Positions 42,580-64,000 of a stretch of 64,000 bases of DNA are shown one piece after another. The stretch lies in the NCBI GenBank assembly GCA_963828125.1, contig CAWHDP010000002.1:1600001-1664000 (forward strand), written 5' to 3'. Within the stretch, counting starts at the first letter, position 1. Each line of letters opens with the position of its first letter. The DNA comes from an uncultured Chlamydiae bacterium (GTDB lineage: Bacteria; Chlamydiota; Chlamydiia; Chlamydiales; SM23-39). The translations under genes and the position numbers were made by a program. The notes under the pieces were generated by a model that worked only from the letters and a program-made list of their open reading frames with translations, was not told where the DNA came from and made no database searches.

Positions 42580-42580
42580 A

Positions 42581-44747: not shown

Positions 44748-44761
44748 TGGGTTAGGAAATG

Positions 44762-44801
44762 AAAAAGCCGAAGACATTGCCATTTCTGAAAATGTCTCCG
44801 G
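44762..44801 (-). terminator. Intrinsic terminator downstream of the tRNA-Phe fragment
   Basis: Minus strand CCGGAGACATT...AATGTCTTCGG followed by CTTTTT. Confidence 0.55.
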
Positions 44802-44806
44802 TGATG

Positions 44807-44854
44807 TGGCCAGAACTGGAATCGAACCAGCGACACAAGGATTTTCAGTCCCCT
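44807..44854 (-). other. 3' half of tRNA-Phe(GAA), att-like remnant
   Basis: AGGGGACTGAAAATCCTTGTGTCGCTGGTTCGATTCCAGTTCTGGCCA: anticodon arm, T arm and 3' acceptor strand; no D arm or 5' acceptor strand upstream. Confidence 0.85.
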
Positions 44855-44914
44855 CGGGACCGCTTCCTTCTCTCGCCTTTGGTTTCCTAAAATTACCCAA
44901 GGTGATTCAATTCT

Positions 44915-46214
44915 CAGGGCGATTTAACTAAAATTTTTTGATAACAGATCTGGTAACATGGCATAGTAAATACCTCATATTTAAGGAGGTCCTATGTCAC
45001 GACGTAAACCGATTGATGCCAAAATCCTAGAAGCCAGTAAGGAATTCGACGCGCATATATTTGCAGAGACTGTCAAGGGGTCGTTTTTCGATTTCCCTGA
45101 TTATCGACGCAACCAAAAACGAGTCTTGTACCCCGTTTGGTACCTATCCCTTGTGATTCTCTGCGGGTTCTTTTGCGGGTGCAATACTATCGAGGAAATT
45201 GCCGAATATGCCCATCTACAAGAGGAATGGTTTGCCTCGCTACTAGGAGAACCGGTTTCAGCTCCTTCCCATGGATCGCTTTGGTGGTTTTTAGTCAAAA
45301 CACCCCCGAACGCTCTCAAGAGCTATTTACAAAAATGGTTCAGTAAAATTCCTAGTTCATTGCGCGATCAACTGTTGGCGATCGACGGCAAAAGACTGAG
45401 GGGGGCTAATTTTTTGGGCCGCATTACCCATGTAGTAGAGTTGTTCGCTGCAGAAGATCGTCTATGTCTTGCCGCAGAAAAAGTCCCCGATAAAACGGTC
45501 GAGAAGAGCACACTGCCAATTATTTTGGAGCAGGTGGATGTAGAAGGTGCGATTATTTCGGGCGATGCTCATTTTACCGTACCTGAATCAGCAGCAAAAA
45601 TCGTTGATGCAAAAGCAGATTATCTGTTGGCTGTTAAAGAAAACCAGCCCACTCTTTGCGCTGAGTTGGAAAATTTTTTCGATCAGGCACATGCAGCCGA
45701 ATGGGAGGAAATCTCACATTCATTTTACCAGGAAGTCGAAAAAGGTCATGGTCGAATCGATATTCGAGAAGTACGAGTCGTAGAGGACTTGGATTGGCTG
45801 CCTAATGTTGACAGATGGAAGAACTTGGTCTGCCTGGTCGAAGTACGATCCACAAGGCAAAAAACCGGATCAACCGCAAGCGAGACGTTAAGACGGCTGT
45901 ATATTTCGAGTCGTCGAGCATCTGCCAAGCATTTTGCTAAGTGGACCAGGCAGCATTGGCACGTAGAAAACAATTGCCATTGGGTAGCTGATGTGATCTT
46001 TAGAGAGGATGATGTGTTGATGGACAGAGGAAATAGCGCAGAAAATTTGGGGTTGTTTCGTCGCTTAGCTATGAATATGGCTGCAGTTGCAGATCCGGAT
46101 AGAGGGCTTGCCTCTGTGAGACGAGCAGCGACTTTCGGTAGCGGATATCTGAAAGGAATATTGGTAAGATTTTTCTGTTCAGGCGTATCAAAAAATTTTA
46201 GTTAAATCGCCCTG
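44915..46214 (+). mobile_element. Complete ISAs1-family IS (1300 bp)
   Basis: Perfect 29-bp IRs CAGGGCGATTTAACTAAAATTTTTTGATA; 10-bp target duplication ATTCAATTCT. Confidence 0.95.
44994..46205 (+). CDS. ISAs1-family transposase
   Basis: AIDGKRLRG, GDAHF, AVKENQ, EKGHGRID, RQHWHVEN..HW..DV.FRED. Confidence 0.95.
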   Translation: MSRRKPIDAKILEASKEFDAHIFAETVKGSFFDFPDYRRNQKRVLYPVWYLSLVILCGFFCGCNTIEEIAEYAHLQEEWFASLLGEPVSAPSHGSLWWFLVKTPPNALKSYLQKWFSKIPSSLRDQLLAIDGKRLRGANFLGRITHVVELFAAEDRLCLAAEKVPDKTVEKSTLPIILEQVDVEGAIISGDAHFTVPESAAKIVDAKADYLLAVKENQPTLCAELENFFDQAHAAEWEEISHSFYQEVEKGHGRIDIREVRVVEDLDWLPNVDRWKNLVCLVEVRSTRQKTGSTASETLRRLYISSRRASAKHFAKWTRQHWHVENNCHWVADVIFREDDVLMDRGNSAENLGLFRRLAMNMAAVADPDRGLASVRRAATFGSGYLKGILVRFFCSGVSKNFS

Positions 46215-46340
46215 ATTCAATTCTATGGTGAACTTTAGATTCTTGGCTACACTTTCTTGGAAATCCAGAGCAACCAAAATCAACCGCCGGAAATCTGCAA
46301 CTCCGTTGAATTTCCGTTATTTTTACGTAGGAAGTAGAGT

Positions 46341-47314
46341 CTATGATTGCTTCTTAGGCTCATCTAAATCGATTTTTGCTTTATGACCATGCTTTTCAAG
46401 CAATTGTAATAGATTTCCTCCGTTGAAAAGCGTCAGAGGCTTGCCATTAGCAAAGCTGTAAGAGTCCGGTCCAAAATCGGAGGTAGTAACAAGAATCCCC
46501 TTGTTAGCCCCCTCATTTAGGACGGTTCCGTATAGATCTCGAACTGCACTAACTCCAACAGGATTCGTATAACGTTTAGCCTGAATAACAATCTTTCCAC
46601 CATGAATAGGATCAGGATTAAATATTACAGCATCAACACCTCCATCTCTACTCGCGCGGGTGACTTTAACCTCACAACCATCTTTTGAAAACTCTTTTTC
46701 AAAAAGCTCTCTAATCAAATGCTCAAAATCTTCCCAATCCATCGTCGCAAGATTGAACGTCTCTTCAAGCTCATTAGCCACATCATAACCTTGAACAAAA
46801 CGATGATCTGGTTTTTGAATCTGCAAAATAGGAGTAATAGCAGCCAGGCTAAAAAGTTTGGAACTTCCAATTCCTTTTAGAAATTTGAAACACATTTTAG
46901 GATCAATATTTAATAAATTAATCATCTGAAATTCATTTTTTTTGCAGTGCAACGACATAACGCATGGGTTAATTTCTTGACCTGTACTTCTATTGATCGA
47001 TCGAACCCAACCATTGAAAATCACTGCTTCTGTCGCATTTGCTGAATCAGCTCTAAATATCTCGTAAACAGTGCGAAGTGTGATTTGATACAACACATCA
47101 TCATACAACTTAGAATGATCAGAACTGCTCATTGATTTTTCAACAATTTCATTTCGAGATTTATTATATTTATACTCTTTTGAATTATTTATTAAATCAG
47201 GACCAGGCAAACAATAATCAACAAGAATAGTTTTTGTTTCTTGTACATATTCAACTCTAAAATCCTTAGGAAAATATTCCGGATATTCAGAAATCTCAAG
47301 AATCGTTGAAAAAT
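46341..47314 (-). pseudogene. Mrr-like restriction endonuclease, 5'-truncated by ISAs1
   Basis: MDWEDFEHLIRELF, SRDGGVDA, IVIQAKRY, VSAVRDLYG, KGILVTTS; frame stays open up to the IS end at 47315. Confidence 0.85.
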
Positions 47315-48267
47315 CAGGGCGTTCTGATGAAAAAGATTTGACAGGTTTCTCAAGTTTTTCTTGATCGTTAATTGAATTTTTATGTTTTCATTTCTCCAAC
47401 AGGAGAATGAAACCATGCCCAAACGACCGACAAAAGACCCTAAGTTTGCTGAATTAAAACAGGATGTTGATTTAGAGCAGTTTGCAGCTTCCGTTAGAGG
47501 AGCTTTCCAAGATGCTGATGATCCAAGGCAGGTCGTTAAGACGAGATACCCATTCTGGTTTTTGATGCTACTTTTGCTCTGTGGATACCTCAGCGGTTGC
47601 AATACTGTGTCGGATTTAACCATCTATGCCGAGCTTAATATTGGGTGGATCAATACGCTGATCAAACAGACGTTTACAGCGCCGTCCTATGACACACTAT
47701 GGTGGCTCCTTGTAAGATTATCGCCGGCTACCTTCAAACTGCTGCTTCAGAAATGGTTTGCAAATATTCCTCAACAATTCCGTGATCAACTACTTATCAT
47801 TGACGGCAAGCGTCTAAAAGGGGCATCTACCGATGAGCATATGGTGCATCTTGTCGAGCTGTTCGCTGCCGAACAAAGACTGGTGTTGGCTCAGGAGAAA
47901 GTACCCGACAAATCATCTGAACCAAAAGTTGTCGAGGCTCTGCTAAAAGACATTGATGTGAGTGGGGCTCTGATTTCGACGGATGCGCTGTTTGCCCATA
48001 TTGCACATGCCCAGAAGTTTTTGGATCACGACGCCGATTATTTGATTGGACTCAAAGGAAACCAGGGCAATTTCCATGCGGAAACGAAGAACTTTTTCGA
48101 TCAAGCTCGAGATGTTGACTACGAAGAGGTCGATGTGGAGCGATTTATTTCGTTAGAAAAAGGCCATGGCCGGATTGAGCAACGATCGATATGTCAGGCG
48201 ACAGTGTAAAATGACCCCCTTTCGACATTGAAAAGTGACCCACCCCCTATTTGAAGTGAGAGTAAGC

Positions 48268-49557
48268 ATGGAACCCAATAAAATCTCTGCTGTTGTAACA
48301 GGAGACAGTAAAGAGAGAATGGAACCACCTAATGTCGTAGAGAAAATTTTATATTTGTCATCAGAAGGGTGGGGTAAAAGACGGATTGCCAAAGAGCTTG
48401 GAATTAGTGCCAATACCGTTAAACACTACCGGCGACAAGGGAAATGGCGCCCGTATAATATTCCCAAAAGAATTAAGAGGCTGGAAGCATTAGATGTCTG
48501 GCTCGAAGAAATGTTTAACCTCCATAAAGGTAATGCAGAGGTTATCCGCCAAGAGTTGGTTCGTCAACACAATCTGCAAGCTGATCTACGCACTGTCGAA
48601 AGAGCAGTTAAACTATTTAGACAAAGGGCCTTTGCTTCAGCAAAGGCGACGATTCGGTTTGAGACGCCGCCGGGCAAGCAGATGCAAATTGACTTTGGAT
48701 CGGTTACTATCAAGATTGCAGGAGAGCCGAAGAAGATCTATTTTTTCGCGGCAGTTCTTGGTTTTTCACGCCGCCAATATATACAGGCCTTTATCCATGA
48801 ACGACAATCGGCCTGGTTTGAGGGGCTTGAAGGAGCCTTTAACCATTTTGGAGGGATCCCATCAGAAGTCTTAATGGACAATCCAAAGCCACTTGTTATC
48901 AGTCACAACCCGCAGACACGAGAAGTGGTGTTCAATGAACGCCTACATGCGTTTGCTAACTATTGGAAATTCAAGCCCAAAGCATGCGCCCCTTATAGAG
49001 CAAGAACGAAGGGGAAGGACGAAAACACGGTCAAATATTTTAAGTATAATGGAATTGCCGGAAGGGAGTTCTCAAGCTGGGAGGCTCTTGGCGAACATAT
49101 CGTTTGGTGGATGAGAGATATTTCAGACCTCAGAATCCATGGGACTACTGGAGAAAAACCAATCGATCGCTTTGAGAAAGAAGAAAAAGCTGTTCTTCAA
49201 CCGCTAAATGGGAAGCCACCTTTCTACTTGGGAAGAGAGATGCAAAGATCGGTCCATACGGATGCTTGTGTGGAGGTGGATACAAATTTTTACAGTGTGC
49301 CATGGCACTTCATTAAAAAAGAGGTCACAGTACAATTAACCGAAACTGAAGTCAAAATCCTCTATGATGCTGACGAAATAGCCCGTCACCCTGTCTGCAT
49401 AGGAGAGAGGCAACGCTCCATCAATCCTCATCATTTAAAGGGAATCGTAGGGGCTAATTGGTGCATGAAAACGGAAGTTCCAAATGCTCCAATCAAACCT
49501 GCCGAGCTGCTTCGTCCTCTTACCGAGTATGAAGCTATTACCGGAGGAGGTTGGTAA
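48268..49557 (+). CDS. istA: IS21 transposase IstA
   Basis: RFETPPGKQMQIDFG, LMDNPK, RTKGKDE, RIHGTT; start codon uncertain. Confidence 0.93.
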   Translation: MEPNKISAVVTGDSKERMEPPNVVEKILYLSSEGWGKRRIAKELGISANTVKHYRRQGKWRPYNIPKRIKRLEALDVWLEEMFNLHKGNAEVIRQELVRQHNLQADLRTVERAVKLFRQRAFASAKATIRFETPPGKQMQIDFGSVTIKIAGEPKKIYFFAAVLGFSRRQYIQAFIHERQSAWFEGLEGAFNHFGGIPSEVLMDNPKPLVISHNPQTREVVFNERLHAFANYWKFKPKACAPYRARTKGKDENTVKYFKYNGIAGREFSSWEALGEHIVWWMRDISDLRIHGTTGEKPIDRFEKEEKAVLQPLNGKPPFYLGREMQRSVHTDACVEVDTNFYSVPWHFIKKEVTVQLTETEVKILYDADEIARHPVCIGERQRSINPHHLKGIVGANWCMKTEVPNAPIKPAELLRPLTEYEAITGGGW

Positions 49558-50348
49558 TGACCATCAATCATGAAAATCTTGTAGCTACACTCCACCGATT
49601 GAAACTTTCAACTATCCGAGACAAACTCGACAACCTTCTCGATGAAGCATCTCGTAAGAAAATGAATTTACGAGAAGCTCTAGCTTTTTTTTGCGAACAA
49701 GAAATGCAGCAGAGAGAACACACCCGTAATCGCCGTGGATTCTCGATGGCTAAATTCCCCTATGCAAGAACTCTTGAACAGTTTGATTTTAGTGCGCAGC
49801 CATCATTGGATGCCGGTCAAATACGCGAACTTGGAACTTGTCGTTGGATTGCCAATGGAGATGCTCTTCTGTTATTAGGCCCTCCTGGAGTTGGGAAAAC
49901 TCATTTAGCTGTTGCGCTTGGCAATGAAGCCATTCGGTTAGGATACACAGTTCTTTTTACTCCGGCGACCACTCTTTTGACCCAGCTCGCTCGGGCTCAC
50001 CAAGAAGGTCGTCTTGAAGACAGGATTGTTTGGTATTCGAAACCCAAATTGCTGATTATCGATGAACTTGGATATCTTCCCTTTGATCCGAAAGCGGCTC
50101 ATTTATTTTTTCAGTTGATCTCCCGACGATACGAGAAAGGAAGTACCTTAATTACGAGTAATCGTTCAGTCAGCGAATGGGGGGAAGTTTTTGGCGATAC
50201 TGTAGTTGCAACAGCAATTTTAGATCGCCTCTTGCATCACAGCCATGTAGTCACTATTCGCGGAGAAAGTTATCGGCTGAAAGAAAAACGAAAATCTGGA
50301 TTGGTTAAAACAACAGTCCTTCAATCGGAGACTCCAGAAGGGAAGTAA
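49557..50348 (+). CDS. istB: IS21 helper ATPase IstB
   Basis: GPPGVGKTHLA, LLIIDELGY, ITSNR, AILDRLLHH, GESYR. Confidence 0.95.
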   Translation: MTINHENLVATLHRLKLSTIRDKLDNLLDEASRKKMNLREALAFFCEQEMQQREHTRNRRGFSMAKFPYARTLEQFDFSAQPSLDAGQIRELGTCRWIANGDALLLLGPPGVGKTHLAVALGNEAIRLGYTVLFTPATTLLTQLARAHQEGRLEDRIVWYSKPKLLIIDELGYLPFDPKAAHLFFQLISRRYEKGSTLITSNRSVSEWGEVFGDTVVATAILDRLLHHSHVVTIRGESYRLKEKRKSGLVKTTVLQSETPEGK

Positions 50349-51014
50349 AAAATTTAGTTTTCGCCCCTCCCCCATGGGGGAGGGGGCCTCCTCTCTCCTT
50401 CGGTGGAAGAGAAGTATTGTGCCTCAGCACCAACTCAGAGCTTTGCATATCCTCTGACTACCGCTAAAGCACCAATATGGCTGTCGTTAGGCAGCCTTAG
50501 TCATTAAAAAAAAGATTGGGGGTGGGTCACTTTTCAATGTCGCCGGTGGGTCACTTTCTGGTGTCGCTTGACACGATATGTGTATGCACAGCTCTGGATT
50601 GGTTACCTCAAGCAAGCACTTGGCCCGGGCTAAAGACCATTGTCGAAGTGCTGTCCGAAAGAGAGATAGATAACAAGAAAACTTCTGAAATCCGGTACTA
50701 CTTTTCGAGTCGCAGAGCGACAGCGAAAGAATTTGCAGGATGGATTCGAGGTCATTGGTCAATCGAGAATCCGTTACATTGGGTATTGGATGTGATTTTT
50801 AGGGAAGATCCCGCCCAAGCAAAGATCGGATTCATTGCCGAAAATATGGCATTTTTTAGGCGGCTGTCGATGAATATCATAAAAACTGCAGACCCTGGTC
50901 GTGGGTTTGCTGATGCTCGAAGATTTTGCACCTACGAGCCAAAATATTTGAGAGGAATTTTGAGCAAGATATTTGTGGGATAGTCTATCAAATCTTTTTC
51001 ATCAGAAGGCCCTG

Positions 51015-52152
51015 TCTCTCTTTCGGACAGCACTTCGACAATAGACCTCTTGCATAACTAAGGGTTCGTCGCTTTTTGGGATTATTTTGGCCAATTTTCG
51101 CTTCTTCTGTTGGGGGTAATATACGAGTGTTGATATTACCCCCAACAGAAGAAGCGAAAATTGGCTCAAAAGAACCCAAAAAGCGACAGAACATTAGTTA
51201 TGCAAGAGGTCTAATGGTCTTTAGCCCGGGCCAAGTGCTTGCTTGAGGTAACCAATCCAGAGCTGTGCATACACATATCGATCGTTGCTCAATCCGGCCA
51301 TGGCCTTTTTCTAACGAAATAAATCGCTCCACATCGACCTCTTCGTAGTCAACATCTCGAGCTTGATCGAAAAAGTTCTTCGTTTCCGCATGGAAATTGC
51401 CCTGGTTTCCTTTGAGTCCAATCAAATAATCGGCGTCGTGATCCAAAAACTTCTGGGCATGTGCAATATGGGCAAACAGCGCATCCGTCGAAATCAGAGC
51501 CCCACTCACATCAATGTCTTTTAGCAGAGCCTCGACAACTTTTGGTTCAGATGATTTGTCGGGTACTTTCTCCTGAGCCAACACCAGTCTTTGTTCGGCA
51601 GCGAACAGCTCGACAAGATGCACCATATGCTCATCGGTAGATGCCCCTTTTAGACGCTTGCCGTCAATGATAAGTAGTTGATCACGGAATTGTTGAGGAA
51701 TATTTGCAAACCATTTCTGAAGCAGCAGTTTGAAGGTAGCCGGCGATAATCTTACAAGGAGCCACCATAGTGTGTCATAGGACGGCGCTGTAAACGTCTG
51801 TTTGATCAGCGTATTGATCCACCCAATATTAAGCTCGGCATAGATGGTTAAATCCGACACAGTATTGCAACCGCTGAGGTATCCACAGAGCAAAAGTAGC
51901 ATCAAAAACCAGAATGGGTATCTCGTCTTAACGACCTGCCTTGGATCATCAGCATCTTGGAAAGCTCCTCTAACGGAAGCTGCAAACTGCTCTAAATCAA
52001 CATCCTGTTTTAATTCAGCAAACTTAGGGTCTTTTGTCGGTCGTTTGGGCATGGTTTCATTCTCCTGTCGGAGAAATGAAAACATAAAAATTCAATTAAC
52101 GATCAAGAAAAACTTGAGAAACCTGTCAAATCTTTTTCATCAGAACGCCCTG
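51015..52152 (-). mobile_element. Second ISAs1-family IS (copy B), inverted and 3'-truncated
   Basis: Near-identical reverse complement of copy A from its left IR (ending 52152); interrupted by a MITE and cut off at 51015 by the right end of copy A. Confidence 0.9.
51043..51212. mobile_element. 170-bp palindromic MITE
   Basis: Termini AGACCTCTTGCATAACTA / TAGTTATGCAAGAGGTCT; almost fully self-complementary; 3-bp AAT duplication shown by the empty site GACCATTGTC in ISAs1 copy A. Confidence 0.9.
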
Positions 52153-52285
52153 CCTCGACTCCCCTTTCCCAACTACTCTCTTAAATCCCAACTACCGATT
52201 TTCTATCGTTTTTTACCAATTTGGTAATTGGGAGAAAATGGTCTACACGGCCTGTAAACGGAAAAAATTAAACCCGAGAGATAAA

Positions 52286-53611
52286 ATGGCAAAGAATAAA
52301 ACCATCAAAGCGGAGGTCCAAACATTTGAGATTGAGACCCCAGAACCAGAATCTGAGATCCTTTTAGAAGAGTTATTCTGGCGTACCGAAACAAGAAAAA
52401 TTAAGGACTTGAAGGAGCATGAGAAAAATCCTCGAAAGATCACTAAGGATCAAATGGAAAAACTCAAGCAGTCGCTCAAGAGCTTTAACTATGTGGAGAC
52501 CATCGTTGTTAACCTAGACAACACTATATTGGCAGGTCACATGAGGATCAGAGCTCTAAAGGCGTTGGGGCGTGGAAAGGAAGAGATTGAGGTTCGAGTT
52601 CCAAACCGACAGCTAACGGCTCGAGAAGCTGAAGAATACCTTATCCGCAGCAATAAAAATTCGGGAGAATGGGATTGGGAGCGCTTGGCTAATGAATGGG
52701 AGGTATCCGATCTGTTCAATTGGGGATTTACTGAAGATGAGCTACAGGTCAAAGACCCCGAGAAGATCGAGGCTGTGGATGATGGCTATGAGGAAGAATT
52801 GCCAGCCGAACCGAAAACCAAGCCTGGGGATATTTACGCCCTCGGCAGGCATCGGCTCATTTGTGGGTCTGCCACAATCCATGGAGACATTGAGAAGGTT
52901 CTCGATTCGGAGTTGATTGATCTTGTCATTACAGACCCCCCTTACAATGTAGCTTATAAGGGTGGAACAAAGGACAAGCTGACCATCAAAAATGATGATC
53001 TGTCAGCGGAGGAGTTCGAGGCTCTTTTGAGAGATTTCTACGTCAATGCTTTCGTGTTTATGAAAGAGGGCTCTGGGATCTATGTCTTTCACGCCGATTC
53101 AGAGGGAGAGAAATTCCGCCGATTTTTCCGCGAGGCGAATCTGAAGATGACTCAATGCCTTATTTGGTTGAAGAACTCTTTTGTGCTCGGACGTCAAGAT
53201 TATCAATGGCAGCACGAGCCGGTCCTATTTGGAGGCAAAGAATACAGCGATCACGATCCTGTTCTCTATGGATGGAAAGAGGGGGAAAAGCATCGTTGGT
53301 ATAACAATCGCAAACAGACCACACTTCTTAAATTTGATCGACCTCAGCGAAATGCCGAGCACCCCACAATGAAACCTATTCCCTTGATTGGGTATCTTAT
53401 CAATAACAGCTCTAAAAAAGACGACCTTGTCTTTGACTTCTTTCTAGGCTCAGGAACCACGCTGATTGCTGCAGAACAACTTGGGCGCTGCTGCTTTGGC
53501 TGCGAGCTCGATCCAAGATATTGCGATGTGATCGTCGAGCGCTACAAAAAGTACAAGATGCAAAAAAACGAACTCTGCGAAATCAAGCTGAATGGAGAAG
53601 CGTATGCCTAG
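52286..53611 (+). CDS. Phage-type DNA methyltransferase (ParB-like N-terminal domain plus N6/N4-MTase)
   Basis: NPRKIT...ILAGHMR; LGRHRLICG, TDPPYN, HPTMKP, DFFLGSGTT, CELDPRYCDVIV. Confidence 0.9.
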   Translation: MAKNKTIKAEVQTFEIETPEPESEILLEELFWRTETRKIKDLKEHEKNPRKITKDQMEKLKQSLKSFNYVETIVVNLDNTILAGHMRIRALKALGRGKEEIEVRVPNRQLTAREAEEYLIRSNKNSGEWDWERLANEWEVSDLFNWGFTEDELQVKDPEKIEAVDDGYEEELPAEPKTKPGDIYALGRHRLICGSATIHGDIEKVLDSELIDLVITDPPYNVAYKGGTKDKLTIKNDDLSAEEFEALLRDFYVNAFVFMKEGSGIYVFHADSEGEKFRRFFREANLKMTQCLIWLKNSFVLGRQDYQWQHEPVLFGGKEYSDHDPVLYGWKEGEKHRWYNNRKQTTLLKFDRPQRNAEHPTMKPIPLIGYLINNSSKKDDLVFDFFLGSGTTLIAAEQLGRCCFGCELDPRYCDVIVERYKKYKMQKNELCEIKLNGEAYA

Positions 53612-55422: not shown

Positions 55423-55471
55423 CTTAAAACTCTAATATTAAATAAGATAAAGTAAATAAACTATTTGAAAA

Positions 55472-55518
55472 TGTAACACAGACACCCACTTGATCTAAAT
55501 GGGTGTTTCTGTTACAAT
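55472..55518 (+). promoter_or_regulatory. Promoter and inverted-repeat operator of the abiE operon
   Basis: IR TGTAACACAGACACCCA / TGGGTGTTTCTGTTACA; TTGATC-17 bp-TACAAT with extended TG; ATG 6 bp after the -10 box. Confidence 0.7.
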
Positions 55519-55524
55519 TCAGTT

Positions 55525-56121
55525 ATGATTAAATCAAAGTATATAGCTGCATTCCAGATGCTCTCAAAAAGACCCGTTTTTTCCTCTGCAGAAGGAAAAG
55601 AAGCAGGAATCCCCTCTAGGATGCTTGCTTATTTTTGCTCAAAGGGACAGATCGAACGTGTCGGTAGGGGTATTTATAGGGTCAAACATATTGATTTTGA
55701 TCGCGACTTCGAATGGGAAGACCTCGTCCTCACCGCCTTGAGCATTCCTAATGGTGTCATATGTCTCATCTCAGCCCTATGCTATTACGGTTTAACAGAT
55801 GAAATTATGAGAGAGTTTTGGATTGCTGTCCCCCATTCTACTACCTCTCCTGCCAGAGAAAATGCTCATATTGTCCGGATGCGTAACATCTCTTTCGGAC
55901 AAACCACTATTAAAATTGGCAGCCAGAAGCTCAAAATTTTTGACCGAGAACGGACTATCGTGGATTCTTTCCGTTACCTGGACAAAGAAACCGCTTTAAA
56001 GGCGCTGCAAGCGTATTTAAAAACAAGCAAAGACAGAAAACCAGACATCGATAAGCTTCTAAGATATGCGAAGAAGCTTAGGGTCGATCTAACCCCTTAC
56101 ATTTCGGCATTTACAATATGA
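55525..56121 (+). CDS. abiEi: Type IV TA antitoxin AbiEi
   Basis: IERVGRGIY, GVICLISAL.YYGLTD, FDRERTIVDSFR, ALKALQAYL. Confidence 0.88.
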   Translation: MIKSKYIAAFQMLSKRPVFSSAEGKEAGIPSRMLAYFCSKGQIERVGRGIYRVKHIDFDRDFEWEDLVLTALSIPNGVICLISALCYYGLTDEIMREFWIAVPHSTTSPARENAHIVRMRNISFGQTTIKIGSQKLKIFDRERTIVDSFRYLDKETALKALQAYLKTSKDRKPDIDKLLRYAKKLRVDLTPYISAFTI

Positions 56122-56978
56122 AATCTGCAATCGAGCAATCAATCAAAGAAAAAATCAAAGCCTTAGCTAAGGAGAGGGAAACCACCTTTGCAGAACTTTG
56201 GAGGAATCTGATCTTGGAGAGGTTCCTGACGCGTTTAGCGCGATCTTCCTATAGGGAAAAGTTTGTTTTGAAAGGAGGAACGCTCTTGGCAAAATACATC
56301 CATCTTGGAAGGGAGACGCAGGATCTCGATTTTTTCATTCAGAAGCTATCGAATACCGAACAGTCTTTAAGGACTGTTTTACAAGCAATTTGCGATATCG
56401 ATGCTAATGATAGCTTCGCTTTCGAAGTGGCTAAAATCAAAATCCTCGATCACTCTCAGCTTGCATATACAGGAGCTGAAATTACTCTGCAGGCACTGTT
56501 CGGCGCCACCAAGACGGTCATACGCATGGATTTAGGATTTGGCGACCGCGTGAAGCCGATTGAATATCCAATGGACTTGACTGCTACATCGAAAGGCCCT
56601 CTCTTCGAAAGCAGAATTTCTCTACACTGTTATCCAAAAGAATTCATTTTTGCAGAGAAATTAGAAACAGTAGTTTTCCGAGGAGGCGGCAACACCAGGA
56701 TGAAAGATTTCCATGATCTTTATTCGCTAATTCGGTTGGACGTTCTCGATAGCTCTCTTGCAAAGAAAGCCGTCCAGCTGGTTTTTCATCACAGAAAAAC
56801 TCCGCTGAAGAAACTGCCGGTTGCGTTCGGCAAGGATGCTTTCGAAACACTTGAGAAAAACTGGACTTCCTACCAAAGAAAAATCAAAGCGAAAAAAGGC
56901 GCCCTTAAACTGCCTGAATCGATAGAGGACGTGATCTCAGTCCTGAATCAATGGCTGGAAGAAAATGCATTCTCCTAA
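56118..56978 (+). CDS. abiEii: Type IV TA toxin AbiEii (nucleotidyltransferase)
   Basis: LERFLTRL, FVLKGG, RETQDLDF, DLGFGD, AEKLE, NTRMKDFHDL; ATGA overlap with abiEi. Confidence 0.9.
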   Translation: MKSAIEQSIKEKIKALAKERETTFAELWRNLILERFLTRLARSSYREKFVLKGGTLLAKYIHLGRETQDLDFFIQKLSNTEQSLRTVLQAICDIDANDSFAFEVAKIKILDHSQLAYTGAEITLQALFGATKTVIRMDLGFGDRVKPIEYPMDLTATSKGPLFESRISLHCYPKEFIFAEKLETVVFRGGGNTRMKDFHDLYSLIRLDVLDSSLAKKAVQLVFHHRKTPLKKLPVAFGKDAFETLEKNWTSYQRKIKAKKGALKLPESIEDVISVLNQWLEENAFS

Positions 56979-57272
56979 TTCGAAGAAGCCCCTACACATT
57001 CTTTTTCGTAAAGCATCTGGATAGCATCGCAGGCGATCATCGAACGATCGATCTTCCTATCTTTTCTGAGGCGATGAATATAAAGCTCTGTAAACGCCTT
57101 CTCAGCCTCTGCAGTCAAATAGACCGTAGCTTTGAACTTTTTCTTATTTCTGTTTTGAAGTTCTTTGACTATTTGCCCGCTCATGTCTTTGACGTTGTCA
57201 GGCGACAGTGTAAAATGACCCCCTTTCGACATTGAAAAGTGACCCACCCCCCTATTTGAAGTGAGAGTAAGC

Positions 57273-58562
57273 ATGGAACCCAATAAAATCTCTGCTGTTG
57301 TAACAGGAGACAGTAAAGAGAGAATGGAACCACCTAATGTCGTAGAGAAAATTTTATATTTGTCATCAGAAGGGTGGGGTAAAAGACGGATTGCCAAAGA
57401 GCTTGGAATTAGTGCCAATACCGTTAAACACTACCGGCGACAAGGGAAATGGCGCCCGTATAATATTCCCAAAAGAATTAAGAGGCTGGAAGCATTAGAT
57501 GTCTGGCTCGAAGAAATGTTTAACCTCCATAAAGGTAATGCAGAGGTTATCCGCCAAGAGTTGGTTCGTCAACACAATCTGCAAGCTGATCTACGCACTG
57601 TCGAAAGAGCAGTTAAACTATTTAGACAAAGGGCCTTTGCTTCAGCAAAGGCGACGATTCGGTTTGAGACGCCGCCGGGCAAGCAGATGCAAATTGACTT
57701 TGGATCGATTACTATCAAGATTGCAGGAGAGCCGAAGAAGATCTATTTTTTCGCGGCAGTTCTTGGTTTTTCACGCCGCCAATATATACAGGCCTTTATC
57801 CATGAACGACAATCGGCCTGGTTTGAGGGGCTTGAAGGAGCCTTTAACCATTTTGGAGGGATCCCATCAGAAGTCTTAATGGACAATCCAAAGCCACTTG
57901 TTATCAGTCACAACCCGCAGACACGAGAAGTGGTGTTCAATGAACGCCTACATGCGTTTGCTAACTATTGGAAATTCAAGCCCAAAGCATGCGCCCCTTA
58001 TAGAGCAAGAACGAAGGGGAAGGACGAAAACACGGTCAAATATTTTAAGTATAATGGAATTGCCGGAAGGGAGTTCTCAAGCTGGGAGGCTCTTGGCGAA
58101 CATATCGTTTGGTGGATGAGAGATATTTCAGACCTCAGAATCCATGGGACTACTGGAGAAAAACCAATCGATCGCTTTGAGAAAGAAGAAAAAGCTGTTC
58201 TTCAACCGCTAAATGGGAAGCCACCTTTCTATTTGGGAAGAGAGATGCAAAGATCGGTCCATACGGATGCTTGTGTGGAGGTGGATACAAATTTTTACAG
58301 TGTGCCATGGCACTTCATTAAAAAAGAGGTCACAGTACAATTAACCGAAACTGAAGTCAAAATCCTCTATGATGCTGACGAAATAGCCCGTCACCCTGTC
58401 TGCATAGGAGAGAGGCAACGCTCCATCAATCCTCATCATTTAAAGGGAATCGTAGGGGCTAATTGGTGCATGAAAATGGAAGTTCCAAATGCTCCAATCA
58501 AACCTGCCGAGCTGCTTCGTCCTCTTACCGAGTATGAAGCTATTACCGGAGGAGGTTGGTAA
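57273..58562 (+). CDS. istA: IS21 transposase IstA
   Basis: As copy 1, with two visible aa substitutions. Confidence 0.93.
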   Translation: MEPNKISAVVTGDSKERMEPPNVVEKILYLSSEGWGKRRIAKELGISANTVKHYRRQGKWRPYNIPKRIKRLEALDVWLEEMFNLHKGNAEVIRQELVRQHNLQADLRTVERAVKLFRQRAFASAKATIRFETPPGKQMQIDFGSITIKIAGEPKKIYFFAAVLGFSRRQYIQAFIHERQSAWFEGLEGAFNHFGGIPSEVLMDNPKPLVISHNPQTREVVFNERLHAFANYWKFKPKACAPYRARTKGKDENTVKYFKYNGIAGREFSSWEALGEHIVWWMRDISDLRIHGTTGEKPIDRFEKEEKAVLQPLNGKPPFYLGREMQRSVHTDACVEVDTNFYSVPWHFIKKEVTVQLTETEVKILYDADEIARHPVCIGERQRSINPHHLKGIVGANWCMKMEVPNAPIKPAELLRPLTEYEAITGGGW

Positions 58563-59353
58563 TGACCATCAATCATGAAAATCTTGTAGCTACACTCCAC
58601 CGATTGAAACTCTCAACTATCCGAGACAAACTCGACAACCTTCTCGATGAAGCATCTCGTAAGAAAATGAATTTACGAGAAGCTCTAGCTTTTTTTTGCG
58701 AACAAGAAATGCAGCAGAGAGAACACACCCGTAATCGCCGTGGATTCTCGATGGCTAAATTCCCCTATGCAAGAACTCTTGAACAGTTTGATTTTAGTGC
58801 GCAGCCATCATTGGATGCCGGTCAAATACGCGAACTTGGAACTTGTCGTTGGATTGCCAATGGAGATGCTCTTCTGTTATTAGGCCCTCCTGGAGTTGGG
58901 AAAACTCATTTAGCTGTTGCGCTTGGCAATGAAGCCATTCGGTTAGGATACACAGTTCTTTTTACTCCGGCGACCACTCTTTTGACCCAGCTCGCTCGGG
59001 CTCACCAAGAAGGTCGTCTTGAAGACAAGATTGTTTGGTATTCGAAACCCAAATTGCTGATTATCGATGAACTTGGATATCTTCCCTTTGATCCGAAAGC
59101 GGCTCATTTATTTTTTCAGTTGATCTCCCGACGATACGAGAAAGGAAGTACCTTAATTACGAGTAATCGTTCAGTCAGCGAATGGGGGGAAGTTTTTGGC
59201 GATACTGTAGTTGCAACAGCAATTTTAGATCGCCTCTTGCATCACAGCCATGTAGTCACTATTCGCGGAGAAAGTTATCGGCTGAAAGAAAAACGAAAAT
59301 CTGGATTGGTTAAAACAACAGTCCTTCAATCGGAGACTCTAGAAGGGAAGTAA
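58562..59353 (+). CDS. istB: IS21 helper ATPase IstB
   Basis: As copy 1, with two visible aa substitutions. Confidence 0.95.
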   Translation: MTINHENLVATLHRLKLSTIRDKLDNLLDEASRKKMNLREALAFFCEQEMQQREHTRNRRGFSMAKFPYARTLEQFDFSAQPSLDAGQIRELGTCRWIANGDALLLLGPPGVGKTHLAVALGNEAIRLGYTVLFTPATTLLTQLARAHQEGRLEDKIVWYSKPKLLIIDELGYLPFDPKAAHLFFQLISRRYEKGSTLITSNRSVSEWGEVFGDTVVATAILDRLLHHSHVVTIRGESYRLKEKRKSGLVKTTVLQSETLEGK

Positions 59354-59808
59354 AAAATTTAGTTTTCGCCCCTCCCCCATGGGGGAGGGGGCCTCCTCTC
59401 TCCTTCGGTGGAAGAGAAGTATTGTGCCTCAGCACCAACTCAGAGCTTTGCATATCCTCTGACTACCGCTAAAGCACCAATATGGCTGTCGTTAGGCAGC
59501 CGTAGTCATTAAAGAAAAGATTGGGGGTGGGTCACTTTTCAATGTCGCCGGTGGGTCACTTTCTGGTGTCGCTTGACAGACGTCTTGCTGTATTAACGCT
59601 TGCTCTTGTTCGCTCATATTCCCCTAAGCCTTTTTACTGGTTTATTAATAAGATGTATAAACGACAAGGGCACCTTGTGTCAACAGACGTTTAGCCGCCT
59701 TGTGCCTAAGCTGGTATAAGATTGATAATATATAAGACGACTTAGCGATAACGATACGAGATCGTCAAAACTTTGTGTTGCCACGAAAGAAAGGGTAGGC
59801 TATCTTTT

Positions 59809-59836
59809 CTTGTTTATAAAGCCGCTTATAAACAAG
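59809..59836. other. dif-like tyrosine-recombinase site (11-6-11)
   Basis: CTTGTTTATAA AGCCGC TTATAAACAAG: perfect 11-bp arms, asymmetric 6-bp spacer, inner ATAA/TTAT. Confidence 0.6.
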
Positions 59837-59847
59837 TTGAGGCAAAT

Positions 59848-60021
59848 GTGATCCAAAAGGAACCCAAAGACTCAAAGTCTCAAGAAAAAAACTCGGAAGC
59901 CAAAAAAATTGATATTGCGATCATCACGACTCTGCCCGGATCACCAATTCAAGGGATAATCTGCAGAGAAGAGCATAAAAAGTTGTTCGAAGGTCTTTGG
60001 GGAAGGAAGCAAAGATCATGA
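59848..60021 (+). CDS. Small hypothetical protein coupled to the recombinase
   Basis: GTG at 59848 after GAGG; ATGA overlap with the recombinase start. Confidence 0.35.
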   Translation: MIQKEPKDSKSQEKNSEAKKIDIAIITTLPGSPIQGIICREEHKKLFEGLWGRKQRS

Positions 60022-60995
60022 CTCTAATGCCAGCAGTTTTAGATCTTCCAGTCCCCTCTCATTTGGACACCTATGAGCAGGCCGCATCATTCAAGACCAA
60101 TTTGGTTTGGAAGCAATTGGATGAAACCTCTGTAGAGGAGGCCCTCTCCTATTGGCTACCGACTTTGAGTCCAAAGACTCAGCTGAACTATAGATCTGGC
60201 ATCAAAAAGCTGATTGAACTCGGATGGCTTAATCCCCTTATGAGTTTGCAGCAATTTGCTTTGGTCAACCATGAAGGCGTAATCGACCGCATTAAACTCT
60301 TCCAGGATTGGGCTGAGACTACTAGACAGGCACGGGCAGCCTGCTACATCTCGTTTACTGGATTTTTAAGCCGCCGTCTTCAGGGTGTTATAAAAAAGGC
60401 CGTTCCAAGCAGGGAAGGCAATGCAAAGACGTTCTTCAGTGTATATGAGAAGGTGAAAACGAATGCGATGACTCAGGCGCAGTGGATTTTATTCTTCAGG
60501 GAATTGGAGAAAATCAACCCTCGCGACTGCCTGATTGGAAAGATCATCTTGCAAGGAGGAAAGAGGGTTAACGAGGTGCTGTCTTTGCAAACCAGTCAAA
60601 TCGATTGGGATCGCTGCGAGATTACCTTTGCTCAGTCGAAAATGAGAAGGCTTAAGAAAGAGACTGTGATTACATATCCAGAGAGCATCATGAAACGGCT
60701 TAGAGAATACATTGGGGAAAGAACCGGTCACGTATTTGTAACCAGATCAGGAAAGCCCGTTATGATGAATCAGCTAGCCATGACTTTTGCAAAGGCTGGC
60801 AGGGCTGCCGGTATTCCATTCAAAGTTTCTCCTCATGTGCTGAGGGCTTCTGCTGTGACCTACCTTAAGCAGCAAGGTTTCCAAGACAGCGATATCATGA
60901 GAGTCACTGGCCATTCCACATCGGAAATGGTTTTTGCCTATGACAAGTCCTCGCGTGCAGATAATGCGAGTAAAAAAGTAAACTTAATATCCTAG
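60018..60995 (+). CDS. Tyrosine recombinase, homologue of chlamydial plasmid Pgp8 (pGP8-D)
   Basis: QARAACYISFT, LQGGKRVNEVLSL, VFVTRSGK, IPFKVSPHVLRA, DSDIMRVTGH...FAYDKSSRADNASKK; catalytic R, HxxR, H and Y intact. Confidence 0.9.
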   Translation: MTLMPAVLDLPVPSHLDTYEQAASFKTNLVWKQLDETSVEEALSYWLPTLSPKTQLNYRSGIKKLIELGWLNPLMSLQQFALVNHEGVIDRIKLFQDWAETTRQARAACYISFTGFLSRRLQGVIKKAVPSREGNAKTFFSVYEKVKTNAMTQAQWILFFRELEKINPRDCLIGKIILQGGKRVNEVLSLQTSQIDWDRCEITFAQSKMRRLKKETVITYPESIMKRLREYIGERTGHVFVTRSGKPVMMNQLAMTFAKAGRAAGIPFKVSPHVLRASAVTYLKQQGFQDSDIMRVTGHSTSEMVFAYDKSSRADNASKKVNLIS

Positions 60996-61083
60996 GGGCT
61001 TTAATGAACGCGAATAGAAACAAAGCGCTTGACCCAAACAGTTACCGCAAATTTTTAGAATGAATTATAAAGGAAGTATCAAG

Positions 61084-61890
61084 ATGAAAAAATTTCTCGC
61101 TTTAAGCTTGCTCTGTTTTCAATGTATCTATGGGAATCAACCTCTTGAAGAGTACTTCTCATACGTTAAACAATTGGGCCAATCTAACGGAAATTATCGA
61201 GAAGGAGAAATTGAAATCGTCACTGACCTTACAGAAATTTCCAAGATCCAAAAAGTGCAGGAAAACCGTCTGCTACAAAAGGGATTTTCTGCAGATAAGG
61301 CATTAGAATTTAGCCGAATAGGTGTTGTAAATGAAGATCAGTATTGGATTTGGCTGCGCGATGCTGTCTATTTTCCTCAAGGAGTTCCAGGGACATACGA
61401 CCGACTGCTATGGAGAAGTGAATTAAAGGGTAAGTTTCCTGGGGTAGCTGTTTTGCCGATTTTGCCTTCTGGTCAGATCGTATTGATTTTAAACTATCGA
61501 CACGCTACGCGCTCTTGGGAGCTTGAACTTCCTCGAGGAGGAATGGAGTCTCAAGAAACGCTTGAAGAAGCAGCATTTCGCGAATTAAAAGAGGAAACGG
61601 GATTAGTAGCATCTTCTGTGGCTTTTTTAGGTGAAATAGCGACGGATACGGGAGTACATTCTTCCGTGATTCCAGTCTTTATCGGGAAAATCTCTACTCA
61701 AGAAGAGTCTAGCCCTGAATATTCTGAGGCAATTGCTGGCGTTATTTCTTTCACAAAAGATGAACTAAAAAAAGGCTTAGTACAGGGCTTTCTAGAGGTG
61801 TCTATCCAAGGCAAGAAAAAACAAATTCCAATTCGCGATGCATTTTTGACTTTTGCTTTGCTTCAAGCAGAATGTCGTAATTTGCTTTAG
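61084..61890 (+). CDS. NUDIX hydrolase (ADP-ribose pyrophosphatase-like) with signal peptide
   Basis: MKKFLALSLLCFQCIYG leader; canonical Nudix box GGMESQETLEEAAFRELKEETG. Confidence 0.85.
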   Translation: MKKFLALSLLCFQCIYGNQPLEEYFSYVKQLGQSNGNYREGEIEIVTDLTEISKIQKVQENRLLQKGFSADKALEFSRIGVVNEDQYWIWLRDAVYFPQGVPGTYDRLLWRSELKGKFPGVAVLPILPSGQIVLILNYRHATRSWELELPRGGMESQETLEEAAFRELKEETGLVASSVAFLGEIATDTGVHSSVIPVFIGKISTQEESSPEYSEAIAGVISFTKDELKKGLVQGFLEVSIQGKKKQIPIRDAFLTFALLQAECRNLL

Positions 61891-61917
61891 AGCCTCCATG
61901 CAACTGGATAAAATTAT

Positions 61918-62970
61918 ATGGAGGATTTTTTGAAATTATATATTCCAACCACAAGCTCACCAGCTTTAGAAAAGGCTAATTTTCCTATTTTTTCTCCGAA
62001 CCAGCTGCCGAGTGACTTAAAACTAAAAGAGGCTAGCTTTAGACCAGAAAACCCTAAGCGTGAATATCCAAGATGCTCGTTAAAACTGATGTTGAAAAGC
62101 GAAAGCACCGAAAAAGTGCTGTATATTAAAGAGTTCAACTATGATTGGGCACCCCCTGCTTATGATTGTCCTTCACTCTGGAAGAACCACGAAGCATTTG
62201 CAGCTGAAGATACGCCAGAACCTCAACCTCATTTGATCGAAAATGATGTGCTATGGATAGGCGTTAATTACAGAAATCAGAGAGCGGCCTCTATAACTAA
62301 GGACAGGACTACTATAGAGATGGTTGGCGATTTTTCAGATCTGGAATTTATTCACATTGCTGAAGGTCTAAAAGCCCTTGATAAAGATCAACGAGGACGA
62401 ATTCTCTCAAAGAGTTTTGCGGAACTGAGCTATGGGTATCCAAGGGCGGTGGAAGCTGTAAATGTCCCCATAAGCTTTTGGAAATTTCCAGTGGAGGGTA
62501 GTCAAATAAAATTTCAGACGGCTTTTATGAAGCCTAATATTCCGACGGAAGCGATTGTAGGCCACCTGCCATTACCAAGCGACAGCAGCTACAAATTGGA
62601 CTCTGTTTTCTCCTACCATTCTGGAAATGCTCCATCAGAAGATAGTCGGTATAATTTTATCTATGAACATGAAGAACACAAAGGGCATACAATCCAGCTG
62701 CAACACGTGCATAAAGACTCCCCTGCTGCATGTGCATTCCCTCCAGTTCCAGATAAAACTCAGAAATTTAAGACCATGTCGAAGAAAGTTGGTGGCATAG
62801 ATTGTTACTATGCATATAGATCAGAAAGTTACGGTCCACATGAGCTTATCTTCCAGCGCGAAAATTTCAGATATCTAATGCTGGTTAAGCCTGCAAGTTG
62901 GACGAGCAGAGAATGGTTTTTTAAGTTTTTAGGGATTTTCCTCAAATGCCATGATGGGTCTATTATCTAG
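61918..62970 (+). CDS. Hypothetical protein
   Basis: 350-aa ORF co-oriented with the NUDIX gene; no family recognised. Confidence 0.7.
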   Translation: MEDFLKLYIPTTSSPALEKANFPIFSPNQLPSDLKLKEASFRPENPKREYPRCSLKLMLKSESTEKVLYIKEFNYDWAPPAYDCPSLWKNHEAFAAEDTPEPQPHLIENDVLWIGVNYRNQRAASITKDRTTIEMVGDFSDLEFIHIAEGLKALDKDQRGRILSKSFAELSYGYPRAVEAVNVPISFWKFPVEGSQIKFQTAFMKPNIPTEAIVGHLPLPSDSSYKLDSVFSYHSGNAPSEDSRYNFIYEHEEHKGHTIQLQHVHKDSPAACAFPPVPDKTQKFKTMSKKVGGIDCYYAYRSESYGPHELIFQRENFRYLMLVKPASWTSREWFFKFLGIFLKCHDGSII

Positions 62971-63013
62971 AAGAAATACGAAAATTTAATGAAGCAAAAT
63001 CAGAGGCAAAGCA

Positions 63014-63532
63014 TTAGAGATTCTCTTTTAGAGCATCTCTAATCTGAAAAAGAATGGATTCTTCAAGCTCAAAAGACCGGTCATACGGGGCATAGTTTGA
63101 CCCCCAACGAGTATCTTTAAAGATGACCCCGGCAAACTCGCGCGAACCTTCGTAGCGCGGCACGATATGTACATGGATGGCTGGAGAGGTGTTACTTAAG
63201 GCTGCATAGTTCATTTTGTCCGGTTGGAAAAGAGTTTTAAGAGCAGCTTTGACATCCGCCCCTATCTGGAAAAACTCATCGCGAGCCTCCCCTTCTATGG
63301 CCAGAAAATCTTCCACCCCCTTCTCATTCTTGAGAAGGACAAAGACACGCCCCAAGTAGCATTGGTTTTCATGGAGATATAGATCCCAATGTTTGTAGGA
63401 TTTGATTTTCAAAAGTTCGTAGTCCACGTTACTCTCCTTCTCTTGTACATGAGAGGCCGCCTGCATTGGAGTGGCCCAAGTTATGCAAAAGGCACCAAGA
63501 ATAAGAAACAAATAATTTCTGAAACGGCGCAT
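63014..63532 (-). CDS. HIT family nucleotide hydrolase with signal peptide
   Basis: NQCYLGR, FQPDKMNYAALSN, AIHVHIVPRY; N-terminal hydrophobic leader. Confidence 0.8.
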   Translation of the reverse strand: MRRFRNYLFLILGAFCITWATPMQAASHVQEKESNVDYELLKIKSYKHWDLYLHENQCYLGRVFVLLKNEKGVEDFLAIEGEARDEFFQIGADVKAALKTLFQPDKMNYAALSNTSPAIHVHIVPRYEGSREFAGVIFKDTRWGSNYAPYDRSFELEESILFQIRDALKENL

Positions 63533-63729
63533 AATTGTAATCATTACTTTAAACACATGAATAATTGAATGATAAACGATCAACTTAGATCAAAACAATA
63601 CATAAAAACATTTTTTTCTCTAAATCTTCAAAACCTTCCCAACGGGATTGGATGGGTAGGTTTTGATGACTACGGATCTAATTGGGAAACAGCTGTTTCC
63701 CTATTTTCAACTTATTCAATGTCAGTGGA

Positions 63730-64000
63730 TTAAATGTTTTTAAACAAATCATCTAGGATCGCCTCGTTGGAGATAAGCTCTTCCGAATACATAGTGGGTT
63801 TTAAGCCCATCGTGGTGATCATAGAGAAAAAGAGCTGTTTTTTTGTCTTCGTTTGTTTCCTAAACACTTCCATTTTCTTTAAAATTTCTTGTGCACAGGA
63901 TTTGTCGATAGCGAATGGTTTGTCCGAATATTTAATTTCGCAAAGAGTAATCGCCCCATCCAGTCGATCAAAAAGAAGGTCTATTTGTGCTCCATCTTCT
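63730..64000 (-). CDS. C-terminus of an AAA ATPase / PD-(D/E)xK fusion protein, partial
   Basis: Hand translation: EDGAQIDLLFDRLDGAITLCEIKYSDKPFAIDK...MITTMGLK...LDDLFKNI*. Confidence 0.75.
   Translation of the reverse strand, partial: EDGAQIDLLFDRLDGAITLCEIKYSDKPFAIDKSCAQEILKKMEVFRKQTKTKKQLFFSMITTMGLKPTMYSEELISNEAILDDLFKNI

Follow-up and report, generated by a model that had tools for sequence, protein, structure and literature searches.

Seven per cent of the proteins of the Criblamydia plasmid have been described as 'of phagic origin' (PMC4208316), and pRm2 of 'Rubidus massiliensis' is credited, in the passages covered, with 20 phage proteins at >70% identity to the Criblamydia plasmid (PMC4791399). 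A 'phage group' with a terminase was defined on the Criblamydia and P. massiliensis plasmids, with baseplate J annotated, in passages that also give pgp7/8 a phage origin and call plasmid-to-chromosome flow frequent; 'capsid' or 'portal' was not found in the searched rows of the supplement (PMC7846284). As far as the passages covered go, both the Criblamydia plasmid and pRm2 are treated as plasmids with some phage genes, and no full virion set is described. Here we analysed a 64,000-nucleotide (nt) stretch (the window) of the chromosome of an uncultured Chlamydiae bacterium, in which a fragment of a related element lies within an island at tRNA-Phe. The Criblamydia plasmid shows the same order methylase-terS-terL-AbiE-RHH-pgp8, of which the window holds only a chromosomal remnant of ~12 kb. 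We are fairly confident that this locus is the relic of a chlamydial phage-plasmid, trimmed by insertion sequences (IS), in an otherwise ordinary tandem tRNA island.

To our knowledge, all characterised chlamydial phages are single-stranded DNA (ssDNA) Microviridae. It is ssDNA Microviridae that the covered part of PMC3091885 names as Chlamydia phages. The role of Pgp8 is unsettled, and the passages covered of one paper call its own model of Pgp7/8 action speculative (PMC13711795). A search of mostly open literature turned up no publication that names either a chlamydial phage-plasmid or a Pgp8 site; 'chlamyd' is absent from the covered portion of the main text of PMC7969092 (Pfeifer et al. 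2021), whose list of 780 elements lay outside this coverage and may include the Criblamydia plasmid. Part of the hybrid gene content has been published; for the complete, conserved virion module shared across families and for the candidate Pgp8 site, no publication was found.

Phage-plasmids of the P1 type combine an episomal state with partition, toxin-antitoxin and contractile-tail genes and the Cre-loxP system. The intact relatives of our fragment are alike in being circular episomes of 70-100 kb with a partition ATPase, a toxin-antitoxin pair and a contractile tail, and their tyrosine recombinase gene lies just behind a palindromic site, as in Cre-loxP. They differ in that the chlamydial head and tail come from a lineage whose phages measure 41-44 kb, and the likeness is one of described features. 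Compared with the 7.5-kb Chlamydia plasmid, the window Pgp8 is 50% identical to pGP8 and 43% to pGP7 (C. psittaci plasmid), with catalytic residues kept. Where that plasmid has a pgp7/8 pair, a single recombinase copy is present here, on a phage-plasmid. On the two elements compared, pGP2, pGP4 and pGP6 had no match and pGP1 and pGP5 matched at only 26-30%; the palindrome described below is not conserved in the C. psittaci plasmid.

The phage-plasmid fragment and its intact relatives

Coordinates are window positions, and those above 64000 are offsets (position on contig C2 minus 1,600,000). Phylum-wide searches covered 401 genomes; G000 is the genome holding the window (95% complete), other G numbers are genomes compared, and Gn:Cn denotes a contig of a genome. 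Features are collected in Table 1.

Table 1. Features of the tRNA-Phe island and the phage-plasmid fragment
Feature	Position	Strand	Evidence or remark
Last ~70 nt of large serine recombinase gene, overlapping the hairpin	44736-44806	+	83% amino acid identity over 46 residues to recombinase in G275
Terminator-like hairpin and U-run behind tRNA fragment	44762-44801 (hairpin 44768-44801)	-	Fold -17.7 kcal/mol
Displaced tRNA-Phe 3' part, anticodon arm to CCA end (att site)	44807-44854	-	47/48 nt identical to intact gene, same strand
Distal arm of tyrosine-integrase island, integrase end lost, interrupted by ISAs1-family IS	44855-46330		~200-nt alignment with other arms
ISAs1-family IS with target duplication	44915-46214	+	PF13808+PF01609; 7 full copies in genome
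Mrr-like type IV restriction nuclease	46341-47210	-	PF04471 E 4e-32; PADLOC mREase_IV
Two inverted copies of second ISAs1-type IS	47315-52152		End at 52152 cuts phage-plasmid fragment
Phage-plasmid fragment, 14.4 kb including own IS21	52154-66601 (window part to 64000, ~12 kb)	+	ISL3 cuts right end
ParB_N-domain DNA methyltransferase	52286-53611	+	PF01555, phrog_498; 88% to Criblamydia plasmid copy
Probable terminase small subunit, terS	53664-54080	+	Precedes terL here and in sister phages
Terminase large subunit TerL, open frame	54073-55422	+	phrog_979 E 7e-164, TIGR01630, PF03237+PF17289
AbiEi-AbiEii type IV toxin-antitoxin pair	55525-56978	+	PF13338, PF08843, PADLOC
Small RHH-like gene, split near codon 13	56978-59617	-	IS21 at 57196-59578, 5-nt target duplication
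Perfect 11-6-11 palindrome, candidate Pgp8 recombination site	59809-59836		0 matches in 100 shuffles
Pgp8-family tyrosine recombinase	60018-60995	+	Catalytic R, HxxR, H, Y kept
Cargo: NUDIX hydrolase, 350-aa protein, HIT protein, AAA ATPase	61060-64000		ATPase PDC-S27-like, offsets 63730-65232
Fifth cargo gene, truncated, past window	65580-66601

The fragment runs methylase-terS-terL-AbiE-RHH-pgp8-cargo. Its Pgp8 and its TerL each found their best plasmid match (89%) on the Criblamydia sequanensis CRIB-18 plasmid NZ_LK031773.1 (89.5 kb), which is collinear with the whole fragment at 80-81% nt identity, the main genes reaching 87-95% at the amino acid level. The annotations of this record, which is typed circular with replicon rep_cluster_1624, include head-, tail- and baseplate-type genes, a DnaB-like protein and ParA. 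Seven contigs of metagenome-assembled genomes (MAGs), 69.5-98.4 kb long, show the same arrangement of virion, packaging and replication genes, and 55-77 nt terminal overlaps were present in five of them; with the Criblamydia plasmid, they make up the eight complete elements examined. Contig G130:C12 matched the fragment at 90-95% nt identity in the phage module and last gene.

Of ~120 open reading frames (ORFs), 42 proteins were scanned against PHROGs, 41 from G130:C12 and one from the plasmid record. Matches comprised portal, head protease, major head, neck, tail terminator, sheath, chaperone, tape measure, and baseplate hub and wedge, together with RecT, exonuclease and Holliday junction resolvase. 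A DnaG-DnaB fusion (primase-helicase) and ParA are also present on intact elements. The relatives combine head, portal, terminase and tail genes with replication and partition genes on a circular episome, as phage-plasmids do. Eleven virion genes compared across the eight elements contained no stop codons and had median dN/dS values of 0.016-0.089 (saturated pairs dropped; 9-28 pairs per gene), indicating purifying selection on them.

At E 1e-20, TerL had matches in 25 of the 401 genomes and in none of the seven of the same genus; apart from the genome studied, 12 carry a full-length copy at 85-98%. The pairing of terL with pgp8, which the preliminary description had proposed to look for in other chlamydiae, does recur: pgp8 lies no more than 6 kb away in 17 of 19 loci with TerL at >=85% (largely from the same genomes), and the contigs of the other two end too soon. 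The capsid protein was found in 11 of 401 genomes and is 94-100% identical in ten of these, across five host families. The window TerL clusters with that of elements assigned to another host family (100/98), and the tree supports one further pair drawn from different families; the host families are those of the bins.

Among the individual genes, domain or family matches confirmed the earlier identification of Mrr, methylase, TerL, AbiEi/AbiEii and the Pgp8-like recombinase. Walker A/B and nuclease acidic residues are kept in the TerL alignment, and Pgp8 is 89% identical to that of the Criblamydia plasmid, 58% to those of the Waddlia and Simkania plasmids and ~50% to Chlamydia pGP8. The terS assignment fared less firmly. 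No family match was obtained, nor any fold-search match at E 0.001; position, a low-confidence model (helix-turn-helix, helix and beta elements; mean pLDDT 54) and weak fold matches make the product of 53664-54080 a probable terminase small subunit. The small RHH-like gene is real and split by IS21, and its RHH label is only a lead, resting on weak likeness to a protein after ParA and to RHH/ParB_C clusters. Neither it, nor the 350-aa cargo protein, nor the Rep candidate had significant family matches. The AbiE pair occupies the same spot in some relatives only. Four of the five cargo genes have homologs on elements of relatives, three of these also downstream of pgp8. Cargo lying directly behind pgp8 in G130:C12 recurs at C2:1083638-1085181 with 96-97% identity, closer than the relic itself.

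IMG/VR phages with a related capsid (70-78%) have resolvase, methylase, terS, terL and portal contiguous. Five such sister phages were checked; they are 41-44 kb long and 98-100% complete, one with direct terminal repeats. Tyrosine integrase, ParA and primase-helicase were not found in any of the five records, the primase-helicase search having had no positive control. From gene order and content, the chlamydial family resembles a phage of this kind in which a pgp8 module and cargo have been placed between terL and portal and to which a plasmid replicon has been added.

Several further members or relatives were noted. G101:C4 is a 70-kb circular member without most of the early-gene block and without a host-type dif, and a tailed prophage that is more remotely related (capsid 52%, portal 32%) occupies G288:C2:22394-39195, in a genome from a different chlamydial family. 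A family piece (L259) sits in a bin titled Chlamydia trachomatis; it and locus L247 are probably mislabelled or misbinned. Runs X1 and X2 contain a second, diverged pgp8 contig (compared with L239:11130-11411, the pgp8 3' part), indicating another family member in those samples. On the Criblamydia plasmid, 3.2 copies of a 32-nt AT-rich repeat (L006:9653-9755), possible iterons, lie 2.6 kb from the Rep candidate. The order containing this genome also has ~1.1 Mb genomes with two Pgp7/8 genes, as would be expected of Chlamydiales.

The palindrome upstream of pgp8 and a candidate host dif

Arms of the 11-6-11 type around an asymmetric spacer are a mark of tyrosine-recombinase sites such as dif and lox. 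The palindrome upstream of pgp8 has inverted arms and a spacer within the ranges of such core sites (11-13 and 6-8 nt, respectively) and is tied to a recombinase gene. All 12 aligned elements share the 9-nt inner arms without change, the outer bases vary by paired, compensating substitutions (G088, G142, Waddlia plasmid), and the core reads ATAA-N6-TTAT with an asymmetric, variable spacer. Exact searching recovered 18 sites in 16 of the 401 genomes, and none with a reversed-pattern control. Seventeen of the sites lie upstream of a pgp8-family gene, 15 within 250 nt and two at 2.6 kb; the remaining one has no pgp8 in 20 kb. Eleven of the 18 had helped to define the search pattern; of the seven outside the defining alignment, six are upstream of pgp8, one of these being letter-identical to the Waddlia site. 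The exact site occurs in just 15 of 63 genomes with a pgp8-family match. These patterns suggest that the palindrome is probably Pgp8's own target. A degenerate ATAA-N6-TTAT repeat (7/11 symmetric) was seen in the C. psittaci plasmid at the pgp7 end, between convergent pgp7 and pgp8 (L129:6412-6439), and may be due to chance.

The preliminary description had listed a dif-like site without coordinates. The palindrome was the only such feature found, and it is not the host dif, agreeing at only 10 of 22 arm bases with the candidate for the latter. That candidate is single (C2:386489-386516), lies 7 kb from the GC-skew maximum and has counterparts in relatives. Over offsets 44000-80000 its best match was 15/22 arm bases, within the shuffle range, and it is absent from the island. 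An E. coli-type dif consensus reached 15/28 at best over 57000-60100, the background level, and was discarded. Host-type dif was present in eight of nine large elements, at 19-22 of 22 arm bases (100 shuffles gave at most 17) and far from pgp8. Cre resolves multimers at loxP; by analogy, Pgp8 may resolve multimers at its own site, with host XerCD acting as a second system.

Islands stacked at tRNA-Phe

In the general model of tRNA islands, tyrosine integrases recombine at the anticodon loop and large serine recombinase genes overlap the tRNA. The displaced tRNA-Phe 3' half and the terminator behind it, both noted in the preliminary description, were confirmed. The genome has a single intact tRNA-Phe (C2:1678329-1678401, minus strand; offset 78329-78401), 14 kb past the window end, and a tyrosine integrase (~77006-78196) directly adjoins it, as that description had predicted. 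A second displaced tRNA-Phe fragment lies at 71894-71941. The segment 71942-78328 thus has an intact tRNA, an adjoining integrase and a displaced 3' fragment in direct orientation, as a tRNA-targeted island should. The interval between the outermost displaced fragment and the intact gene is 33.5 kb, ~8.5 kb of it insertion sequence.

Read outwards from the tRNA, the order is a 6.4-kb tyrosine island (71942-78328), an attachment (att) site, a serine island remnant, ISL3 (66602-67981), the phage-plasmid piece, the IS cluster, Mrr, a second tyrosine-island arm, an att site and a second serine-island stub. The ~200-nt arm starts at the anticodon loop and is homologous at both tRNA-Phe fragments (44855 and 71942), at C2:1066895, at tRNA-Asn, and in G275 and G276. 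In G275, of the same genus, the uncut order is tRNA-Phe, integrase, cargo, fragment, hairpin and a full 544-aa serine recombinase. The stub at 44736-44806 matches residues 498-543 of this recombinase, which lies at tRNA-Phe, the aligned residues extending into the tRNA fragment; the stub is the start of an older, mostly deleted serine-recombinase island. Of the other serine recombinase, one third of the gene remains (68790-71904), interrupted by IS66 (68872-71486). The hairpin bases double as the coding 3' end of the large serine recombinase on the plus strand, and related copies sit behind tRNA-Leu(CAA), tRNA-Leu(CAG) and the second tRNA-Phe fragment. A consensus terminator scanner missed this hairpin because its loop exceeds the scanner limit of 8. 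A short serine-type att was sought between the two tRNA fragments, and only a 9-nt match at 63298, judged to be chance, was found.

GC content is ~41% from the island leftwards to ~37.8 kb and 50% in the flanks. Since this low-GC cargo runs on to the left, 44807 is probably not the outer island edge. In five of nine relatives, tRNA-Phe is followed within 19 kb by an obg-like/rplU-like block (names read by eye; none a close strain), which is 535 kb away in this genome. Overall, the locus matches known tandem tRNA islands in its integrase beside the intact tRNA, displaced 3' fragments, replacement terminator and stacked arrays, and differs only by heavy IS cutting.

Mrr is island cargo, with no homolog found in the phage-plasmids. 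Its best 80 genome matches are 61-68% identical and none of the 80 is titled as chlamydia; Mrr as a phage-plasmid gene or a chlamydial marker was accordingly unsupported. The second ISAs1-type copies are themselves invaded, one by IS21 (48192-50573) and the other by a palindromic insert (51039-51216). A composite transposon between the ISAs1 copies at 44915 and 75611 was rejected because a separate target duplication flanks the left copy. Left of the att site, the window holds a second AbiE pair (41956-43659) with AbiEii broken into two frames, a polysaccharide deacetylase (44375-44747), also broken, and, at 27930-37757 on the minus strand, a 3275-aa protein with a DUF3638 domain, a 1438-aa paralog of which lies at C2:1052768-1057084.

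Similar arrangements occur elsewhere in the genome. C2:1066895-1067430 is a 99% copy of window 44313-44848, inverted and 580 kb away, which ends exactly at the anticodon loop and runs into a third tyrosine-island arm, suggesting an aberrant integrase event. At C1:263153-317042, tRNA-Asn is followed by seven copies of its own 3' end across 54 kb, with at least two integrases, forming a long tandem island array; displaced fragments were also seen for tRNA-Met, -Thr, -Tyr and -Ala. A serine-recombinase island at tRNA-Leu(CAA) (C2:667265-679723) carries a DUF5681 gene and an AbiE-ankyrin pair, and leucine-biosynthesis-like genes (identified by eye) lie between it and a second recombinase stub.

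Origin of the fragment and rival readings

Homologs of virion genes (portal, capsid, tail) or of the Rep candidate were not found in this genome, and the piece is a relic because the genome lacks virion and replication genes; it cannot replicate or form particles. Homology to intact elements ends at 52154, 2 nt from the ISAs1-type end, and at 66601, 1 nt from ISL3, which has no target duplication at this right border. Partial copies of the element were also found in the chromosomes of G111 and G132. The preliminary description had left the choice between 'phage-plasmid, satellite or relic'. Phage-plasmid as the source and relic as the state both held, and satellite did not: the piece has terL, has no primase and matches a full phage-plasmid, which does not fit a satellite resembling phage-inducible chromosomal islands. 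Nor did the hybrid arise within the island; its assembly took place on the episome.

That description had also proposed that one element entered through tRNA-Phe. Such a hybrid, a phage-plasmid that gained a tyrosine-integrase island with attP, entered whole and then decayed, would account for a piece lying between att sites and for the arm at 44855, a second tyrosine island without its integrase end. The chromosomal fragment in G132 lies 3 kb from tRNA-Thr, and the covered part of PMC5010888 places a terminase in an island downstream of tRNA-Thr. This reading is nonetheless improbable: tRNA-Phe fragment, arms, tyrosine integrase and serine recombinase were found in none of the eight complete elements, none of which thus carries the integrase and tRNA attP of a tRNA-integrated prophage; a second tRNA fragment lies at 71894-71941; both ends of the piece are IS ends; and the chromosomal relic in G111 is not accompanied by any tRNA within the 100 kb examined. 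Integration through the Pgp8 site was rejected because homology continues on both sides of it, and integration at dif because the candidate dif, though on the same contig, is ~1.27 Mb away. We consider IS-mediated entry most likely, and capture of the piece by the second tyrosine island possible. An assembly chimera joining a free phage-plasmid to the chromosome through repeated IS copies could be suspected, since both borders are IS ends and no listed contig spans the whole stretch; it is very unlikely given that read depth in the likely source run is mostly 11-14 over the piece (single-copy; 54 for IS21, 88 for ISL3), that 77 nt of a contig from another study bridge the right junction and that the genome lacks the rest of the element. 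Slightly less probable than the hybrid element, and still doubtful, is a plasmid with a domesticated phage module packaging part of its own or host DNA in the manner of a gene-transfer agent, the relic being a transduced piece. Capsids are 94-100% alike in genomes of 70-98 kb, against 41-44 kb for complete sister phages, no lysin was recognised, and a variable cargo block separates terL from portal. On the other side, the near-identical capsid in five host families and a TerL tree joining different families are more easily explained by packaging of whole genomes, the relic retains sequence upstream of terS, and capsid size is not readable from 70% identity. As to the palindrome, it may instead serve a repressor (Pgp8 or the RHH protein) as operator in a divergent promoter, a less favoured reading though not a negligible one: it lies between the divergent RHH-like gene and pgp8, and the elements have host-type dif available for dimer resolution. 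Its geometry, core, variable spacer and compensating outer bases better fit a tyrosine-recombinase site, and the two roles are compatible.

We propose that tRNA-Phe would have acted as a hot spot at which small islands came to be stacked, their structure being evident in the sequence. Serine-recombinase islands, whose gene ends in the tRNA, would supply the terminator hairpin; tyrosine-integrase islands would cross over at the anticodon loop and push the tRNA 3' half outwards. The intact element of 70-98 kb would be maintained as a plasmid by primase-helicase, ParA, toxin-antitoxin, host-type dif and Pgp8 acting on the palindrome, and its gene content, that of a complete contractile-tailed virion, would allow particles to be formed. 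A copy would have entered the island, most likely by IS-mediated cointegration, IS-adjacent deletions would then have removed replication and virion genes, and the AbiE pair may have helped to retain the remainder.

For environmental chlamydiae as a whole, we lean, by a modest measure, towards widespread and active tailed double-stranded DNA phage-plasmids, a family that would have arisen when a contractile-tailed phage of ~42 kb acquired a plasmid replicon and, between terL and portal, a Pgp8 module. Such elements would cross families without conjugation, resolve multimers through a Cre/lox-like Pgp8-palindrome system together with host-type dif, and leave chromosomal relics. Several observations weigh against the phage-plasmid relic explanation of the locus. 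The IS queries used against the complete elements (ISAs1 and IS21, not ISL3) had no homolog there, and deletions have erased the original junctions, leaving the route of entry a proposal. Near pgp8, neither the Simkania plasmid stretch nor the C. psittaci plasmid yielded the palindromic site. Sister phages with a 71-78% identical capsid are only 41-44 kb long, which makes packaging of 70-98 kb doubtful to a degree, and the 42 proteins scanned included no holin or clear endolysin, one baseplate protein having a second-rank 'endolysin' match. The 80.7-kb G244:C3 has virion genes but no terL, terS or methylase match in its assembly, and its pgp8 lies 2.6 kb from the site. Finally, hosts of MAG contigs are assigned by binning, and L247 fell in a bin titled Bacteriovoracaceae.

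The relic itself is ordinary, and the intact elements to which it points matter more: the plasmid of a cultured isolate, like at least seven elements from MAGs, carries genes for a conserved tailed virion. If our proposal is true, phages would be one way in which genes pass between intracellular chlamydiae, and the spread of non-conjugative megaplasmids with their metal-resistance cargo across chlamydial families would find an explanation. The palindrome would likewise name a DNA target for the Pgp7/8 family, making the question of that target testable.

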